Assembly: GCA_018818885.1 (NCBI GenBank)
Contig: JAHIRB010000018.1
Coordinates: 5,041-69,040 of the forward strand
Source: Patescibacteria group bacterium
GTDB lineage: Bacteria > Patescibacteriota > Patescibacteriia > Buchananbacterales > SURF-54
Length of the DNA: 64,000 bases
Direction: 5' to 3'
The translations under genes and the position numbers were made by a program. Below, in pieces: positions 1,958 to 53,133 of the stretch. Numbering within the stretch: the stretch's first letter is position 1; every line of letters begins with the position of its first letter. The notes under the pieces are model-generated. The model had not been told where the DNA came from. It did not search any database and saw only the letters and a program-made list of their open reading frames with translations.

Positions 1958-3295
1958 ATGCAGAAGAGAATTGAACAATTTATCGCAAATCCTAAGAAAG
2001 CTTTATGGAAGCTTTCTTTGCCAATTATTATCGGAATGTTAGTCCAAGTTTTATACAACATTGTGGATACCGCCTTTGTTGGTAGGCTTGGCGCAGAAGC
2101 CATTGCGGCATTAACATTTTCTTGGCCATTATTTTTTGTATTGATTTCATTGAATGGAGGGCTGGGAGCAGGCATGAACTCTCGCCTATCACGTTACTTG
2201 GGCGAAAAAAACATACCCCAAGCGGAAAATACAGCAACCCATGGCATGGTATTGTCTTTAGTCGTAGGTTTTATTATTTTTGTTTTAGGCATGATTTTTT
2301 TAAAACCTTTATTAGTAGTTTTCGGCGCTTCTGATTATGTTTTGAAATATGCTTTGGATTATATGAGAATTATTTTAGTGGCAGGGTTATTTATGTATCC
2401 CTCGTATATTATGTATTATATATTCGCCGCACAGGGAGATACCAAAACTCCGATGAAAGTTCAAATAATTGCTTTGGTTGTTAACATGATTTTAGACCCG
2501 ATATTTATTTATTTTTTAGGCCTTGGAGTTAAAGGTGCTGCTTATGCAACCATGATTTCTTTTTTACTTTCTTTAATAATCTATATATATCTGTTTAAGA
2601 AAAGATCACATATAAAAATTAATATCAAAACTTTTAAGTTTTCGTGGCGTATTACTAAAGAAATCCTTGCTGTAGGGCTACCTGCCACCATCATGATGCT
2701 TTTGATGTCTGTTTATTTTATTTTTATAAATCGTTTGATGGCATCTTTTGATGTTGAAACAGTGGCAGCGTTTGGTATAGTAGCTCGGCTTGATAGTGTT
2801 GCAGTTATGCCGGTGGTTGGCCTTTCGGCTGCACTCATTACTTTAGTTGCAATGTTTTATGGAGCAAAAAGATACGACCTTCTAAGAAGTATCGTTTGGT
2901 ATGCAATTAGGGTGATGATAATTTTTAGTATTATTATAGGCTTTATATTTTTTGTTTTCCCACAATTATTTTTGATGATATTTACCAAAGATAAAAATTT
3001 GATTAATCTTGGTTCCCAATATTTAAGAATACAGTTGTTTACTTATCCTTTTATGGTAATCGCCATGATAATTGGTAGAACTATGCAAGGGCTTGGTTTG
3101 GGTTTGCCTGGTTTGATAATTAATTCATTAAGAATGATTTTGATTGCTGTTCCTTTAGCTTATGTTTTTGTTTTAATATTTAACTTTTCTTATTTGTCTA
3201 TTGCGGTTGCTTCGGTAATCGCGGCAGTCATAGCAGCAATTGTTGCGATAATTTGGATAGAAATTAAATTAAAGAAATTAAAATTACTTATTTGA
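1958..3295 (+). CDS. MATE family multidrug/oligosaccharidyl-lipid efflux transporter
   Basis: 445 aa, 12 predicted TM segments. The N-terminal ALWKLSLPIIIGMLVQVLYNIVDTAFVGRLG is typical of MATE/NorM/DinF. Confidence 0.8.
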   Translation: MQKRIEQFIANPKKALWKLSLPIIIGMLVQVLYNIVDTAFVGRLGAEAIAALTFSWPLFFVLISLNGGLGAGMNSRLSRYLGEKNIPQAENTATHGMVLSLVVGFIIFVLGMIFLKPLLVVFGASDYVLKYALDYMRIILVAGLFMYPSYIMYYIFAAQGDTKTPMKVQIIALVVNMILDPIFIYFLGLGVKGAAYATMISFLLSLIIYIYLFKKRSHIKINIKTFKFSWRITKEILAVGLPATIMMLLMSVYFIFINRLMASFDVETVAAFGIVARLDSVAVMPVVGLSAALITLVAMFYGAKRYDLLRSIVWYAIRVMIIFSIIIGFIFFVFPQLFLMIFTKDKNLINLGSQYLRIQLFTYPFMVIAMIIGRTMQGLGLGLPGLIINSLRMILIAVPLAYVFVLIFNFSYLSIAVASVIAAVIAAIVAIIWIEIKLKKLKLLI

Positions 3296-16995: not shown

Positions 16996-18321
16996 ATGAA
17001 CAATCATAATAATACTACACAACCATTTACAAAAAGAAAATTTTTGTTTGTTTCCTATGATGCCTTAATTTCTGACGTCGCTTGGCAGGTAATTAAAGAA
17101 GGGCACGAAGCCAAATATTATATCAAACACGAAGAAGATAAAGACATCGCTGACGGTTTTGTACCCAAAGTAGATAATTGGGAGGCAGAAGTTGATTGGG
17201 CAGACATTGTTGTGTTTGATGATGTTTTAGGGATGGGTAGATGGGCAGAAAAATTGAGAAAACAAGGAAAGCTTGTAGTTGGCGGGTCAACCTATACGGA
17301 TAAGCTCGAAGATGACCGTTCTTTTGGCCAAGAAGAACTAAAGAAATTTGGTATCCCAATTATTGCTTATCGAAATTTTACTTCTTTTGACGATGGTATT
17401 GATTTTGTTAGAGAAAATCCAGGAAGGTACGTAGTTAAGCCAAGTGGCGAATCACAAAACGTTAAACTTTATCTTTTTGTCGGACAAGATGAAGATGGCA
17501 AGGATATCATCCAAGTTCTAGAAGCCTACAAAAGGATTGTTGGTAAAAAAATTAGAGAATTTCAATTACAAAAATATGTAACTGGGGTAGAAGTTGGCGT
17601 AGGTGGTTTTTTTAATGGCAATGAATTTGTTTATCCAATAAATATTAATTTTGAACATAAAAAGCTTTTTCCAGGAAATATCGGGCCTTCCACAGGCGAA
17701 ATGGGAACTAGCATGTTTTGGAGTAATGCTAACCGTCTTTATAATGCAACTTTGAAAAAAATGGAAGCTAAATTAGCAGAAGAAAAATATGTTGGCTATT
17801 TTGATTTAAATTGCATTGTCAACAGCCATGGAATATACCCATTAGAATTTACTTCTCGTTTTGGTTATCCAACAATTCATATCCAGCAAGAAGGCATATT
17901 AATGACAATTGCTGATTTTTTATACGGCTTAGCAGATGGTAGCTTAAAAAAGTTTAAAGCAAGAAATGGTTTTCAAGTAGGAATTAGGCTGGTTGTACCA
18001 CCTTTTCCTTATGGAGGGGGAGAAGTAAGCCAAGAAGCTAGTTCCAAAGACACAGTTATACTTTTTAAAAAACCAAATTTAGAAGGAATCCGAATTGAAG
18101 AAACAAAATTAATCAATGGTGAATGGGTAGTGGCCGGAACTTATGGTGTGGTGTTGGTTGTAGTTGGTTGTGGACCAACCATGAAGCAAGCACAACGCCA
18201 AGCATATACTAGAATGAAAAATATTGCCATACCTAATATGTATTATAGAACAGATATTGGCGACCGTTGGTTCGAAGACAGTGATAAGCTACATAACTGG
18301 GGATATTTGAGAGAATTATGA
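16996..18321 (+). CDS. purD: phosphoribosylamine--glycine ligase (PurD)-like ATP-grasp enzyme
   Basis: GNIGPSTGEMGT aligns to PurD DTGPNTGGMGAY. The C-terminal GVVLVVVGCGPTMKQAQRQAYTRMKNIAIPNMYYRTDIG aligns to PurD GRVLCVTALGHTVAEAQKRAYALMTDIHWDDCFCRKDIG. No other pur genes in the window. Confidence 0.65.
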   Translation: MNNHNNTTQPFTKRKFLFVSYDALISDVAWQVIKEGHEAKYYIKHEEDKDIADGFVPKVDNWEAEVDWADIVVFDDVLGMGRWAEKLRKQGKLVVGGSTYTDKLEDDRSFGQEELKKFGIPIIAYRNFTSFDDGIDFVRENPGRYVVKPSGESQNVKLYLFVGQDEDGKDIIQVLEAYKRIVGKKIREFQLQKYVTGVEVGVGGFFNGNEFVYPININFEHKKLFPGNIGPSTGEMGTSMFWSNANRLYNATLKKMEAKLAEEKYVGYFDLNCIVNSHGIYPLEFTSRFGYPTIHIQQEGILMTIADFLYGLADGSLKKFKARNGFQVGIRLVVPPFPYGGGEVSQEASSKDTVILFKKPNLEGIRIEETKLINGEWVVAGTYGVVLVVVGCGPTMKQAQRQAYTRMKNIAIPNMYYRTDIGDRWFEDSDKLHNWGYLREL

Positions 18322-26390: not shown

Positions 26391-26410
26391 TCTATTAACT
26401 CAACAAAACT

Positions 26411-26986
26411 ATGCAACTTATACCAACAGTTATCGAAAAATCACACATGGGCGAACGCGCCTACGACATCTACTCTCGTTTGCTAAAAGAGCGAATCATT
26501 TTTTTAGGTTCACCAATAGATGATGTGGTAGCAAACACTGTTATTGCTCAACTTTTATTTTTAGAATCAGAAGATTCAAAAAAAGATATCAAAATTTATG
26601 TTAACTCCCCTGGTGGTTCGGTAACAGCAGGTTTGGCAATTTATGATACCATGCAATATGTAAAACCAGATGTTATGACAATTTGTGTTGGTTTGGCAGC
26701 AAGCATGGGAGCAGTACTTTTATCTTCAGGAAAAAAAGGAAAAAGAATAGCATTGCCTAATTCAGAAATTATGCTTCATCAAGTAATGGGTGGTGCAGAA
26801 GGCCAAGCAGCAGATATTAAAGTACGTGCAGAACATATCTTAAAAATACACGCTAGACTTAATCAAATACTGGCAAAACATACTGAACAGCCATTAGCAA
26901 AAATTGAAAAAGATACAGATAGAGATTTCTTTATGTCTGCAGAAGAAGCCAAGAAATATGGCTTAGTAGATAAGATTATCAAGTAG
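26411..26986 (+). CDS. clpP: ATP-dependent Clp protease proteolytic subunit
   Basis: 191 aa. [25 protein letters not shown] and a catalytic GLAASMGA serine motif. Confidence 0.9.
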
Positions 26987-27017
26987 AGTACTGAGAATTG
27001 GCACTAATAATAACCAA

Positions 27018-27140
27018 TAATCAAGAACCAATAAACAAACAATGTCCAATGATCAATTTTCAATATTCAAATGCTTAGCTGTTTGTAAATTGATTATTGG
27101 GATTTAAAATTTGTTTGGAAATTGGAATTTGAAATTTGGA
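27018..27140. repeat. long imperfect inverted repeat: CCAAT-rich left arm, ATTGG/ATTTG-rich right arm
   Basis: Left arm CCAATAATCAAGAACCAATAAACAAACAATGTCCAATGATCAATTTTCAATATTCAAAT, right arm ATTTGTAAATTGATTATTGGGATTTAAAATTTGTTTGGAAATTGGAATTTGAAATTTGG. Confidence 0.3.
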
Positions 27141-27207
27141 GCTTAATTAATCATAGCTAAATTTAGTTAAATAAGCTATATTAATCAACTTTTATCCCCA
27201 CAGGGTC

Positions 27208-27236
27208 TTGACGTATTTTAATGGGTATGATAAATT
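27208..27236 (+). promoter_or_regulatory. candidate promoter TTGACG-17-TAAATT upstream of the riboswitch-like leader
   Basis: TTGACG at 27208-27213, 17-nt spacer, TAAATT at 27231-27236. The -10 element is weak. Confidence 0.35.
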
Positions 27237-27261
27237 ATGTTTAACCTTACAATTTCATAGG

Positions 27262-27400
27262 TTATTTAGAGAGCTACATGCTATCCAGCCTCTCTCGAGA
27301 AGCTGGATTAAAGGGAAATGGCCCGAAGGTAGCCAGCAACTCTCTTCGATATTATATCGGGGGCAAGAGTGCTAATTCCACCCATAAAAGGGAAAGATAA
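27262..27400 (+). promoter_or_regulatory. candidate SAM-I (S-box) riboswitch aptamer
   Basis: AAGGGAAATGGCCCGAAGGTAGCCAGCAAC matches S-box GGAGGGAcUGGCCCGAUGAAACCCGGCAACC. A P4-like hairpin CTCTTCGATATTATATCGGGGGCAAGAG follows, then an exact GUGCUAAUUCC block. The P1 helix could not be verified by hand. Confidence 0.5.
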
Positions 27401-27435
27401 CGTTGTATGTCGTGCCAAATACGATGTAGACAAAA

Positions 27436-27471
27436 AACTCTTAAAAATCTTTCTGTTTTGAGAGTTTTTTG
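27436..27471 (+). terminator. intrinsic terminator AACTCTTAAAA...TTTTGAGAGT plus T6 (riboswitch expression platform)
   Basis: 10-bp stem with one G-U pair followed by TTTTTTG. A second hairpin, GCCTTCC-TTTTG-GAAAGGC plus T-run, follows at 27493-27518. Confidence 0.5.
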
Positions 27472-27563
27472 TTTGCATCCACGATGTGAACTGCCTTCCT
27501 TTTGGAAAGGCTTTTTAATTGGGGACAAATGAACATCCACATAGATGGAAGGAGGAATCGAAA

Positions 27564-27839
27564 ATGGCAAATGCATGGAGGGAAGCACAACAGGCGCTTG
27601 AAACAGAACTCAAGAAAGCTCAAAAAAAGGGCATAGCACGAGGAAAGACCATCCGTGATTTTGTGATCATGGTTGATGGTGACCAGCTCTGCCTGGGCGT
27701 GCTTACCGGTAAATTGCTCAACAATGAGAGAGAAGTAAAGAGGTACCCTGACATTGAAGGGATTAAGAATGAAGTCAGTTCAGAGTCTTACCCTACAGAT
27801 GGGGTACGGTTTATGTCCATGGCTGGTTACGACGTTTAA
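27564..27839 (+). CDS. small protein of the SD-bearing small-ORF class, downstream of the SAM-I-like leader
   Basis: 91 aa. GGAAGGAGGA SD 8 nt upstream of the ATG. GC-richer. Its own strong terminator follows. Confidence 0.5.
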   Translation: MANAWREAQQALETELKKAQKKGIARGKTIRDFVIMVDGDQLCLGVLTGKLLNNEREVKRYPDIEGIKNEVSSESYPTDGVRFMSMAGYDV

Positions 27840-27857
27840 CGAGCAATGACGTCTGGC

Positions 27858-27896
27858 GGGGAGTTAGTCTTTTTAAGACTCCCCACCTTTTTTTTA
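27858..27896 (+). terminator. intrinsic terminator GGGGAGTTAGTCTTTTTAAGACTCCCC plus T8
   Basis: Perfect nested hairpin followed by ACCTTTTTTTT. Confidence 0.55.
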
Positions 27897-27924
27897 CTAG
27901 CTCTGTTGTTCGTAAAGACAAAGC

Positions 27925-27953
27925 TTGACATCAATAAAACATTGTGATATGAT
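27925..27953 (+). promoter_or_regulatory. consensus sigma70 promoter TTGACA-17-TATGAT for rny (leader of about 200 nt)
   Basis: TTGACA at 27925-27930, TATGAT at 27948-27953. Confidence 0.5.
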
Positions 27954-28158
27954 GCAATAAGCTTAATAAAAATTAAACTAGGAAATATTGAGAAAATAAG
28001 CGAATAGCTAGATTTCACTAGAAATTGTATAGCAATTACTTAAAAAATTTAATTCCGTTGCATATAAAACGCAAAAAATTAGAAAAACTCAGCAGACAAC
28101 AAAGAAAACATATAGTTTTTTAATTTCGCTACTTCTCTTTTCCTTTTGAGGAAAAAAC

Positions 28159-29688
28159 ATGGATACAATTAATGTTTGGCCTTTCGCGCTAGCGGTGGGC
28201 ATTATAACCGGTTTGATCACTGGTTTTTATTTACGTAAAGTAATTGTAGTAAAAAGAAAAGATTCAATTGAGCGCAAAATTCAAAACATGATTCAAGAAG
28301 CCAAGGCTAAGCAAAAAGAAATTTTGCTTGAGGCTAACGACAAGGCTTTAAAGTTTATAGAAGATGCTAAAGGAGAAATTCGTGCCAGGCAGCAAGATTT
28401 ACAAAGTTCACAAAGAAGATTCGAACAAAGAGAAGGTCTATTTGACCAAAAACTTATTGAGCTTGAATCTAAAAAGCAAGAACTTTTAGATAAAGCAGAA
28501 AAAATAGAGGACATCAAAAAACAAGTAATAAAAATTAAAGAAGAGCAAACTACTAAATTAGAAAAAATTGCAGCTTTAAGCAAAGCAGAAGCTAAGGAAC
28601 TTTTACTTGAAAATGTTGAAAAAGAATCAAAAGAAGATATTTTGCAGCGTATTAAGAAATTAACCCAACAAGGTTCCGAAGAACTTGAACGTAAAGCCAA
28701 AGAAATGCTTTCTACGGTAATTGAGCGTGTTGCTATTTCTCATGCAACAGAAAGTACAGCTACTGTAGTTGATCTACCATCAGACGAAATGAAGGGACGT
28801 ATCATTGGACGTGAAGGAAGAAACATCAAATCATTCGAACAACAAACAGGAGTTGAAATTATCGTAGACGATACCCCCCAAGCCATTACAATTTCTGGCT
28901 TTTCTCCAATTAGACGTCATGTAGCAAAAAAAGCATTAGAGAAATTAATACAAGATGGAAGAATTCACCCAGCAAGAATAGAAGAAACAATAGCAGAAGC
29001 TAAACAAGAAATTGCACTGGCAATCAAAAAAGCAGGTGAAGACGCACTCTACGATGTTGGTGTTACTGGTATTGATCCTAAATTAGTCCAAATTTTAGGT
29101 CGCTTGATGTATCGTACAAGTTACGGACAAAATATCTTGCAGCATTCAATTGAAATTGCGCACCTTTCAACTTTACTGGCAGAACTACTTGGAGCAGATG
29201 TTACATTAGCAAAAAAGGGCGGGCTTTTTCATGACATTGGTAAAGCTGTAGATCACGAAGTTCAAGGCGGTCACCCAGAAATTGGCTATGATATTTTAAA
29301 GAAATTTGATATGCCAGAAGAAGTAGCCTATTGCGCCAAAGGACATCACGAAGATCATCCAAAAACTCTAGAAGCAGTTATAGTTAAGGTAGCAGATGCA
29401 ATTTCTGGTGCACGTCCAGGAGCACGAAAAGATACTTACGAAAACTATTTGCAGCGTTTGGAAGAACTAGAAAAAGTTGCAACTTCGTTTGATGGTGTAG
29501 AAAAATCATATGCTATTCAAGCAGGGCGTGAAATTAGAGTATTTGTAGTGCCAGAGGAAATTGATGATTTAGAAGCAGTAAAGTTAGCACAAAACATTGC
29601 TAAAAAAATTGAAGCAGAATTAAAATATCCAGGTGAAATAAAAGTTAATGTAATACGCGAAAAACGTATCGTGGAGTACGCGAGGTAA
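28159..29688 (+). CDS. rny: ribonuclease Y
   Basis: N-terminal TM, coiled coil, KH domain (GRIIGREGRNIKSFE) and HD domain (HSIEIAHL...FHDIGK). 509 aa. Confidence 0.9.
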   Translation: MDTINVWPFALAVGIITGLITGFYLRKVIVVKRKDSIERKIQNMIQEAKAKQKEILLEANDKALKFIEDAKGEIRARQQDLQSSQRRFEQREGLFDQKLIELESKKQELLDKAEKIEDIKKQVIKIKEEQTTKLEKIAALSKAEAKELLLENVEKESKEDILQRIKKLTQQGSEELERKAKEMLSTVIERVAISHATESTATVVDLPSDEMKGRIIGREGRNIKSFEQQTGVEIIVDDTPQAITISGFSPIRRHVAKKALEKLIQDGRIHPARIEETIAEAKQEIALAIKKAGEDALYDVGVTGIDPKLVQILGRLMYRTSYGQNILQHSIEIAHLSTLLAELLGADVTLAKKGGLFHDIGKAVDHEVQGGHPEIGYDILKKFDMPEEVAYCAKGHHEDHPKTLEAVIVKVADAISGARPGARKDTYENYLQRLEELEKVATSFDGVEKSYAIQAGREIRVFVVPEEIDDLEAVKLAQNIAKKIEAELKYPGEIKVNVIREKRIVEYAR

Positions 29689-29770
29689 ATTACGAATTAC
29701 CAATCAATACGAATATACGAATAGATAATACGTAATTTGTATATTAGTTTAAATTCGTAATTGGTATTAA
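29689..29770. repeat. palindromic intergenic repeat, copy B (AATTACGAATTACCAATCAATACGAATATACGAAT ... ATTTGTATATT...AATTCGTAATTGGTAT)
   Basis: Same arm sequences as copies A and C. Lies between rny and the YmdB-like gene. Confidence 0.6.
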
Positions 29771-51322: not shown

Positions 51323-51619
51323 ATGGGAACTGAACAGGTAGTAACTTGCCAGCCACTTCCGACCTCATATGTGGGTCATGGCATGAAAACATTGAAAGCC
51401 CAGATGGCACTCATCAAAGAAGCAGTAGAACAACAGAACAAGGGCATAAGAGGTTGTCAATTTGAAGGTGTTGCAGTTCTCCAAGTCTCTATTGATGGCA
51501 ACTGCCCAAATCCAGATTGTGGCTCATCGAATATTAATTCGCACAAAGCCCCGGCGGAATTTGGATTGGATGCCAGAAGATGTAAATGCAACGATTGCAG
51601 AACAGTTTTTAATTTTTAA
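51323..51619 (+). CDS. zinc-ribbon small protein (SD-bearing small-ORF class) inserted between tsaD and tsaE on the opposite strand
   Basis: 98 aa. AAAGGAGG SD 6 nt upstream. NCPNPDCGS...CKCNDCRTVF. Confidence 0.5.
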   Translation: MGTEQVVTCQPLPTSYVGHGMKTLKAQMALIKEAVEQQNKGIRGCQFEGVAVLQVSIDGNCPNPDCGSSNINSHKAPAEFGLDARRCKCNDCRTVFNF

Positions 51620-52761: not shown

Positions 52762-53133
52762 ATGACAAAAGATCGTCGGATATTCGGTACCAAAAAAACA
52801 AAAGTTTTACTGAAGGACGTCAAGAAGGGAGACACAATTGAGATACGAGTGCCTGTAGAAGACACTGAAACTGCTTTTGTCAAACCCGACGACAAGTCCT
52901 ACTGGATTGGCCTGGAGGTGATCACAGTAGTTGAAGGTATGATCAATGCCAAGATTGTCGAACCAGACGAGGTCAAAAGCGGATGCGAAGCCAATGTGTG
53001 GTTTCCAGAAGTTGAAGTAGGTGAACCCCTTAACTTATCTTGGACGCATGAAGTGTCGGAAGATATCGCATTCAGGATTCAGTCTGTCAACGAAATACTG
53101 CTCATTTCATTCAAAGAAGCAAAAGTCGGGTGA
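52762..53133 (+). CDS. small acidic protein of the SD-bearing small-ORF class
   Basis: 123 aa. AAAAAGGAGGGG SD 8 nt upstream. Terminator hairpin GAGGCGC...GCGCCTC at 53151-53186. Confidence 0.45.
   Translation: MTKDRRIFGTKKTKVLLKDVKKGDTIEIRVPVEDTETAFVKPDDKSYWIGLEVITVVEGMINAKIVEPDEVKSGCEANVWFPEVEVGEPLNLSWTHEVSEDIAFRIQSVNEILLISFKEAKVG

Follow-up and report, generated by a model that had tools for sequence, protein, structure and literature searches.

A probable SAM-I-class riboswitch variant without a canonical kink turn precedes exchangeable miniprotein genes between clpP and rny in Patescibacteria

In a metagenome-assembled genome (MAG) from the Patescibacteria, which are ultrasmall bacteria, the spacer between clpP and rny carries a leader that resembles the S-adenosylmethionine (SAM)-responsive riboswitches of the SAM-I (S-box) class and that is followed by an open reading frame (ORF) for a 91-aa orphan protein. 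The DNA analysed is one stretch of 64,000 nt (hereafter the window), and positions are given in its coordinates unless the locus of a relative is named. An earlier reading of this DNA from its letters alone (the sequence-only reading) had proposed that an orphan small ORF in a genome resembling those of the candidate phyla radiation (CPR) is preceded by a SAM-I-type aptamer and a terminator, which raises the questions of whether the leader is a genuine SAM-I-class element and of what such an element would control at this locus. Comparative evidence across relatives supports the proposal. The region 27259-27403 is predicted to fold as a SAM-I four-way junction (P1-P4) with a pseudoknot between the P2 loop and J3/4 and an intact SAM pocket, and the binding core, the helix order and the pseudoknot together point to a SAM-I-class aptamer. 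Since the canonical kink turn (K-turn) and the usual regulon are missing and the window copy scores below the Rfam threshold, the element is better described as a variant than as a plain SAM-I member, and we consider that the leader is probably a functional SAM-I-class riboswitch in a lineage-specific form.

At gathering thresholds, an Rfam search of the window returned four tRNAs only and no SAM-I match. In a permissive scan of the intergenic region, RF00162 (SAM) was the top match, spanning 27287-27403 with 22.6 bits where gathering requires 44.4; in this alignment the junction nucleotides fit and P1 was flagged as unpaired. The covariance score above gathering that the sequence-only reading had called for was not obtained, which is explained by a hairpin inserted in P2, into which Infernal threaded P1 and J1/2. 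The leader of the nearest relative, L003, is the same but lacks this hairpin, and it reaches 53.1 bits, above the gathering score. A composite core (AGGGA-N3-GGCCC...GCAAC...GTGCNAATTCC) has a single match in the window and is met in none of 100 dinucleotide shuffles, and the S-box core blocks noticed earlier are indeed present, as AAGGGAAATGGCCCGAAGGTAGCCAGCAAC at 27311-27340 (the AGGGA...GGCCC...GCAAC block) and GTGCTAATTCC at 27369-27379.

Further clpP-rny loci were gathered through RNase Y homologues, together with one true match from a pattern scan of metagenomes, to give a comparison set of 12 leaders (the window, L003, L004, L005, L024, L107, L108, L109, L110, L116, L118 and L120), and a lineage covariance model, R1, was built from five leaders, the window included. 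In every relative whose RNase Y identity is at least 69%, two named Candidatus Buchananbacteria genomes among them, R1 detected a single aptamer in the spacer between clpP and rny; in loci with an identity of 59% or less it detected none. It scored the window aptamer best of all, at 154.5 bits, the window being one of its own training sequences. With RF00162, the corresponding scores are 46.9 bits for L108, 41.0 for L107, 40.3 for L118, 39.7 for L120, 36.0 for L109, 30.8 for L116 and 26.9 for L005, while L004, L024 and L110 are not detected. The SAM-I threshold of Rfam is therefore passed by L003 and L108, and the other 10 of the 12 species fall under it or are missed altogether. At every locus, Infernal clan competition retained RF00162 over SAM-IV and SAM-I/IV. 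Two of the searches returned mainly other material: the metagenome pattern, GAAAGATAACN{3,8}ATGTCGTG, matched 84 loci, nearly all by chance because it is too short for that collection, with L024 as the sole true relative, and the RNase Y genome scan yielded mainly distant taxa (identity of 59% or less), with no aptamer in them. Elsewhere in the window, R1 gave a weak match in an AT-rich segment (17710-17793, 12.7 bits, E 0.64) that we judged to be noise.

The fold itself is conserved. Across 11 distinct sequences, 92.0% of the cells of the SAM-I fold were paired, as against 24-43% when the 3' partners were slid by 1-3 columns. Compensatory changes occur in 10 pairs (26 cells), namely five of the six pairs of P2a, two pairs each in the pseudoknot and P3 and a single pair in P1, and the covariation score was reached by none of 500 shuffles. 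P2a is 100% paired across the 11 sequences, and the pseudoknot is 97.7% paired across the clade, in the states CUGG/CCAG, CUGA/UCAG and CUAG/CUAG. A MAFFT-only alignment of five sequences gave a similar result for pairing and covariation, pair counts on 5, 8 and 11 sequences all favour the SAM-I fold, and RNAalifold independently yields P1, P2a, P2b, P3 and P4. In the window, the canonical fold has an energy of -42.5 kcal/mol, compared with -44.1 kcal/mol for the minimum free energy (MFE) structure, a gap of 1.6 kcal/mol from which pseudoknot and ligand terms are excluded. P1 encloses the conserved blocks, as the earlier reading had expected, and is kept in all relatives; what that reading had taken for a P4-like hairpin after GCAAC turned out to be P3, the real P4 being a separate, shorter helix (Table 1). 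An alternative in which P1 lies at 27278-85 and 10 nt are inserted between it and J1/2 was dropped, as the relatives put P1 at 27259-66.

Table 1. Predicted elements of the leader and the unit downstream of it, in window coordinates
Feature	Position	Strand	Details
SAM-I-type aptamer, four helices and pseudoknot	27259-27403	+	R1 score, pair counts, RNAalifold
P1	27259-66 / 27396-403	+	AGGUUAUU pairs with GAUAACGU
J1/2	27267-70	+	
P2a	27271 and 27273-77 / 27329-34	+	
Inserted hairpin, 26 nt	27283-27308	+	AUCCAGC / GCUGGAU stem, inner UCU / AGA; in MFE fold
P2b	27313-15 / 27322-24	+	
P3	27335-43 / 27366-73, plus distal stem	+	
J3/4	27374-80	+	
P4	27381-83 / 27390-92	+	3 bp
Pseudoknot (P2 loop with J3/4)	27319-21 with 27378-80	+	3 bp in the window
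Proposed switching segment X1 (GGGAAAGAU)	27390-27398	+	P4 3' strand, J4/1, first nucleotides of P1 3' strand
Conserved linker hairpin	27407-27427	+	AUGUCGU, 7-nt loop, ACGAUGU; 3' strand overlaps the base of T1
Terminator T1	27423-27479	+	Core stem 27438-46 / 27456-64, loop AUCUUUCUG 27447-55, U-tract 27465-74
Terminator-like hairpin T2	27493-27516	+	GCCUUCC, UUUU, GGAAAGGC, then UUUUU
Sigma-70-type promoter	27208-27236	+	TTGACG, 17-nt spacer, TAAATT, extended -10 TG; consensus scan
Shine-Dalgarno sequence AGGAGG	27550-27555	+	8 nt before ATG; direct reading
91-aa orphan ORF (cargo)	27564-27839	+	ORF list; GC 0.46 versus 0.34 for the window
Cargo terminator	27858-27895	+	GGGGAGU...ACUCCCC, ACC, eight U; direct reading; part of the non-homologous cassette 27556-27922

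The P1-P4 four-way junction and the pairing of the P2 loop with J3/4 are shared with the SAM-I/S-box class (RF00162; T. tengcongensis metF, B. subtilis yitJ), as are identical junction and pocket nucleotides (UUAU...AGAG, AGGGA, GCAAC, GUGCUAA and GAAAGAU) and the fact that two members of the clade score above the Rfam threshold. The window was compared, in T. tengcongensis numbering, with conserved positions from PMC3764141 and 13 pocket residues from bioRxiv 10.64898/2026.03.23.713157. This showed that 22 of the 26 listed positions are identical, including the pocket nucleotides A6, U7, G11, C44, A45, A46, C47, U57, G58, C59, A87 and U88. Two of the four differences, C8 to U (a U.G pair) and G89 to A (a U-A pair), keep their base pairs; the other two, G19 to A and A36 to G, are K-turn positions. 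A SAM-I-like ligand-binding core without the K-turn internal loop is also found in SAM-IV (RF00634) and SAM-I/IV (RF01725), grouped in Rfam clan CL00012, which resemble the present leader in combining such a core with an altered periphery. Unlike in these two families, P4 here stands at the SAM-I position and the pseudoknot is that of SAM-I, formed by the P2 loop with J3/4.

In P2, the canonical K-turn appears to have been replaced by an asymmetric internal loop. The window equivalents of the K-turn positions are A27311 for G19 and G27329 for A36, the latter Watson-Crick paired in P2a, and the gap between P2b and P2a measures 4 nt on the 3' strand versus at least 6 nt on the 5' strand, whether a hairpin is present or not. 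Compared with SAM-I, the clade thus lacks the canonical K-turn and has a 6 nt versus 3 nt asymmetric loop, which bears a hairpin in half of the species. The inserted hairpin of the window lies on the 5' (non-bulged) strand of this loop, at the usual position of the SAM-I K-turn, and would turn P2 into a three-way junction. Hairpins at the same site are present in L004, L110, L116 and L120, and in a longer form in L024, with compensatory changes in their stems (AGC/GCU, GGU/ACC and GCC/GGC); they are absent from L003, L107, L108, L109 and L118, and L005 has two other hairpins at the P2 insertion site. Further insertions are found in P3 of L004 and in the P4 loop of L110. In L116, GC-rich, hairpin-forming CCCGAC...GTCGGGA repeats lie in distal P3 and in the interval between its two terminators (2397-2420 and 2510-2580 of that locus), and they suggest a small repeat element that inserts into this RNA.

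The k-junctions known from TPP (thiamine pyrophosphate) riboswitches have a third helix on the non-bulged strand (PMC4005666, PMC10573300). The window hairpin occupies this third-helix position, but this lineage does not conserve the G.A / A.G pairs by which k-turns and k-junctions are recognised. Conservation of the pseudoknot implies that P2 still bends sharply, with another kink replacing the K-turn, and an engineered exchange of the SAM-I K-turn for the unrelated pk-turn is reported to keep SAM binding (PMC4316175). The clade would offer a natural experiment in RNA architecture, in which a different junction stands in for the K-turn and the SAM-I pocket and pseudoknot remain, and would complement such engineered replacements.

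A remodelled P2 and a minimal P4 might, on the other hand, have shifted specificity to S-adenosylhomocysteine (SAH) or another adenosyl-sulfur compound. This would explain a regulon unrelated to methionine, and it fits both the absence of any downstream gene from the classical S-box regulon and a periphery that departs from SAM-I in having no K-turn, a 3-bp P4 and insertions in P2, P3 and P4. The known changes of ligand within riboswitch classes involve substitutions in the pocket. In the window, however, all reported SAM contacts are unchanged, among them the sulfonium-reading U7 and U88 as well as the G11-C44-G58 triple (PMC3764141; bioRxiv 10.64898/2026.03.23.713157), and SAM-I still binds SAM when an unrelated kink takes the place of its K-turn (PMC4316175). 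A changed ligand is accordingly highly improbable, and SAM is the expected ligand of the leader.

Downstream of the aptamer, the leader resembles SAM-I in carrying an intrinsic terminator, presumably as part of an OFF switch. The terminator placed earlier at 27436-27471 is present as a U-tract hairpin, T1, whose extent is larger than proposed, with an A-tract/U-tract extension that lengthens the stem to 24 bp; the second hairpin, the strong Shine-Dalgarno (SD) sequence and the ATG at 27564 are where the earlier reading had put them. Tandem terminators set the clade apart from SAM-I. Two consecutive terminator hairpins lie between aptamer and SD in 10 of the 12 leaders, whereas there is a single one in L120, and T1 is the only one evident in L024. 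A consensus terminator scanner called homologues of T1 in L108 and L120 and a homologue of T2 in L108, and called neither T1 nor T2 in the window, as their stems are GC-poor or bulged. The sequence of the linker hairpin before T1 is kept in the window, L003, L004, L005 and L024, and a second copy of CACGAUGU follows T1 at 27480-87. The sequence that precedes T2 (ACGAUGUGAAC) is a repeat of the one that precedes T1 (ACGAUGUAGAC), with the same arrangement in L004 and L005, so the two terminator modules may be tandem duplicates.

How binding would be coupled to termination is less obvious from the folds. P1-P4 and the pseudoknot were recovered as the sequence-only reading had anticipated, but the antiterminator that it had also envisaged does not appear in equilibrium folds. 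These folds and a search for partners of the 5' arm of T1 revealed no classical stable antiterminator, and the clade apparently differs from SAM-I in lacking such a structure formed from the 3' strand of P1. Every leader contains a complement of a different strand, X1, and T1 and/or T2 carry it in their loop or in their distal 5' arm (in the window, the T1 loop at 27447-53). In eight of the 12 leaders, the X1 9-mer ranks 1-3 when approximately 100-180 aptamer windows are compared for pairing to the platform of the same leader. The complement follows an A-to-G change in X1 between the two groups of leaders, GGGAAAGAU occurring with AUCUUUCC and GGGGAAGAU with AUCUUCCCC, and it is retained in L120 despite an otherwise unrelated terminator stem. 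From these patterns we infer that X1 is the switching strand. With SAM bound, P1 and P4 would hold GGGAAAGAU (27390-98), T1 and T2 would form, and transcription would stop before the small ORF. When SAM is low, X1 would be released and could pair with its complement, in the loop or the distal 5' arm of a terminator, and this invasion would hinder formation of the terminator hairpins, probably kinetically, and allow read-through into a miniprotein gene led by a strong SD.

The second question, what the leader would control, begins with the 91-aa protein. Pfam identifies the flanking genes as ClpP and RNase Y, which confirms the reported position of the orphan between clpP and rny, and its orphan status also holds: among 5.8 billion proteins it matches only itself (a hypothetical protein from a Patescibacteria MAG). 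An exhaustive HMMER scan of 1.84 billion cluster representatives gave spurious repeat matches only, to a cysteine-rich repeat in giant proteins, and no family was assigned by Pfam, PHROGs, PADLOC or a PDB sequence search. A weak NCBIfam match to homoserine dehydrogenase (E 0.0058, 15.6 bits versus a cutoff of 286) was tempting as a link to the methionine pathway and was rejected because it is unsupported by the Pfam and PDB searches. The AlphaFold2 model has a pLDDT of 57.8, too uncertain for a fold search.

Comparison with L003, the nearest relative (RNase Y identity of 91%), shows that this gene is not a fixed part of the locus. The two loci share promoter, leader and terminators, and BLASTN homology runs through clpP (26405-26986), from the promoter and leader to the SD (27192-27555) and from the rny promoter onward (27923-29691), whereas the ORF and its own terminator (27556-27922) have no counterpart in L003. 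The cassette is swapped between species. In L003, L005, L024, L118 and L120 the cargo consists of one or two CxxC...CxxC zinc-ribbon miniproteins, in L004, L107, L108 and L110 of a clade-restricted miniprotein family (approximately 72-82 aa), in L116 of a tandem duplicate of this family (124 aa, 2663-3037 of that locus) that begins with MVASPVL and ends with PTISD, as in L108 and L110, and in L109 of a 167-aa unknown. Leave-one-out profiles of the clade family are matched in score by none of 2000 shuffles, and the family profile retrieved only these members from 5.8 billion proteins. Substitutions between the L108 and L110 miniproteins are skewed to third codon positions (38 versus 23 and 18). 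The 91-aa orphan marginally resembles the family, with 28 of 2000 shuffles reaching the real score and a BLASTP E of 0.015 against L004.

Every cargo has a strong SD, its own terminator and a GC content above that of its locus. Searches of the cargoes against methionine/SAM genes, phage families and defence families gave zero matches, and PROSITE-type signatures of MetK were unmatched within the window. The earlier description of the regulated gene as a GC-rich small ORF, neither metK nor a methionine transporter, agrees with this, but the ORF is one of several interchangeable cargoes and not a fixed partner. The gene behind the putative switch is an exchangeable cassette, in which ORF and terminator vary behind a conserved riboswitch, two terminators and SD, and in this the clade differs from SAM-I, which controls met, cys or SAM genes. 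In L120, a 62-aa CPSC...CPAC zinc-ribbon ORF with a good SD (2934-3122 of that locus) was missed by the gene caller, which called a 42-aa ORF in another frame instead.

Several observations weigh against a functional SAM-I-class riboswitch. The window copy scores under the Rfam gathering score (22.6 versus 44.4), as do most copies of the clade, unlike SAM-I proper, and neither the window nor any relative has the tandem G.A pairs characteristic of the SAM-I K-turn. P4, always CCC/GGG across the clade, is shrunk to 3 bp relative to SAM-I, and the pseudoknot of the window has three pairs instead of four. As all 12 sequences belong to a single narrow clade, the compensatory cells do not count as independent events, and two of the alignments, A2 and A5, had been fitted to the model. 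In the expression platform, no leader of the set has a weaker X1 complement than the window, where it measures 7 nt, with -7.9 kcal/mol and rank 32 of 137, and where the copy in T2 is lost. No antiterminator appears in MFE structures, T1 and T2 persisting in folds to each U-tract whether the 5' strand of P1 is blocked or not, and the 5' arm of T1 has no consistent partner in the aptamer, the best ones being weak and no better than shuffles. Finally, no connection with the metabolism of methionine or SAM is known for the genes downstream.

Part of this could reflect a decaying relic: the riboswitch of the lineage would work, while the window copy would no longer bind SAM or switch, leaving the orphan ORF constitutive or silent. 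The Rfam score of the window is the lowest among the copies that Rfam detects, the fourth pseudoknot pair is gone (AUGG / CCA-), the inserted hairpin contains a C-A mismatch, the X1 complement has shrunk to 7 nt in T1 and disappeared from T2, and the cargo is an orphan whose family similarity is marginal. Yet the pocket nucleotides and helices of the window are all intact, its canonical fold lies no more than 1.6 kcal/mol from the MFE, and promoter, SD and both terminators are kept. R1 also scores the window best, although the window is among its training sequences. The P2 hairpin is common to five other species and is compensated, and so is not damage, and the T. tengcongensis aptamer likewise has only three Watson-Crick pseudoknot pairs. 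We regard decay of the window copy as very unlikely and continue to favour a working variant of the SAM-I class.

The conservation of the leader relative to its cargo allows another explanation, in which the riboswitch RNA itself is the conserved product and a SAM-terminated leader of approximately 230-270 nt acts in trans or on rny, the ORFs being incidental passengers. In Listeria, SreA and SreB are trans-acting SAM riboswitches, in which a SAM-I leader stopped at its own terminator becomes a discrete small RNA. The leader described here, with two successive terminators, could likewise yield a discrete short RNA; it is much better conserved than what follows (homology with L003 spans 27192-27555 and resumes at 27923, with unrelated cargo between), and its position beside rny is unchanged in 12 of 12 species. 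In contrast to SreA and SreB, the downstream ORFs of the clade look translated. All cargo ORFs have a strong, well-spaced SD and their own terminator, the miniprotein family shows the excess at third codon positions noted above and recurs in five species, once as a tandem duplication, and zinc-ribbon cargoes recur in five species. The rny gene has a separate, conserved promoter (11 of 12 consensus matches), and the cargo terminators split the two units. No complementarity to a trans target was found, although none was searched for. An RNA product in place of the encoded proteins is unlikely.

If the leader is a SAM-I-class riboswitch, a broader picture can be drawn, which we put forward as tentative and open to doubt. 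A Buchananbacteria-like clade might maintain a fixed SAM-gated slot between clpP and rny, made up of promoter, K-turn-less aptamer, two terminators and SD, into which zinc ribbons, a fast-evolving family of approximately 75 aa and orphans are repeatedly swapped. SAM would then serve as a proxy for host-supplied methionine and control small effectors instead of sulfur metabolism, and the SAM-I fold would be able to exchange its K-turn for a three-way junction. Most interesting are the K-turn-less, insertion-tolerant architecture and a slot, presumably gated by SAM, with swappable miniprotein genes. Such a regulon would be unusual, tying SAM sensing to exchangeable genes for tiny proteins in organisms believed to obtain metabolites from hosts, and one ligand at one locus would provide a concrete handle on miniprotein function.

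The sequence-only reading had found the element unexpected because SAM-I was held to be chiefly of the Firmicutes type. That view needs correction: SAM-I has been reported in eight phyla besides Firmicutes (PMC3766115), and its occurrence in a CPR genome is therefore less surprising. Full-text literature searches returned no description of natural riboswitches in Patescibacteria, and one paper that reports no FMN (flavin mononucleotide) riboswitch in Parcubacteria, so natural riboswitches in this group look undescribed so far. As hairpins inserted in P2, P3 or P4 lead to under-calling by standard annotation, the riboswitch content of Patescibacteria genomes is probably underestimated.

The leader and its cargo form an independent transcription unit, with an upstream promoter, a cargo terminator and a separate promoter for rny. 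The TTGACG-17-TAAATT promoter proposed earlier was confirmed and carries a TG extension; it predicts a transcript start near 27243, and equivalent promoters precede the aptamer in relatives. The promoter of rny is near-consensus (TTGACA-17-TATGAT with TG, 27925-53). It is followed by an rny 5' untranslated region (UTR) of approximately 200 nt (region 27923-28158), whose sequence is shared with L003 from 27923 onward and with L004 from 27952 onward. Judged by this conservation, it may act as a regulatory leader for RNase Y; Rfam gave zero matches in this region.

Other features of the loci stand apart from the riboswitch. Between the stop codon of clpP and the riboswitch promoter, the window contains a 205-nt AT-rich stretch (26987-27191) with short tandem-like GGAAATTGGAATTTGAAATTTGGA motifs, which is absent from L003, where the spacer is approximately 22 nt. 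In the corresponding interval, L120 has an additional 98-aa ORF with its own terminator (2349-2645 of that locus). Elsewhere in the window, two GC-rich small ORFs of 98 and 123 aa (51323-51619 and 52762-53133; GC 0.43-0.44 versus 0.34) have strong SDs, with no aptamer match near them; the 98-aa ORF is Cys-rich and zinc-ribbon-like (CPNPDCG...CKCNDC). In one further contig, L105, clpP is broken into ORFs of 53 and 121 aa (1555-2130 of that contig), whereas it is whole on the otherwise equivalent contig L106, and the split is probably an assembly or sequencing frameshift.

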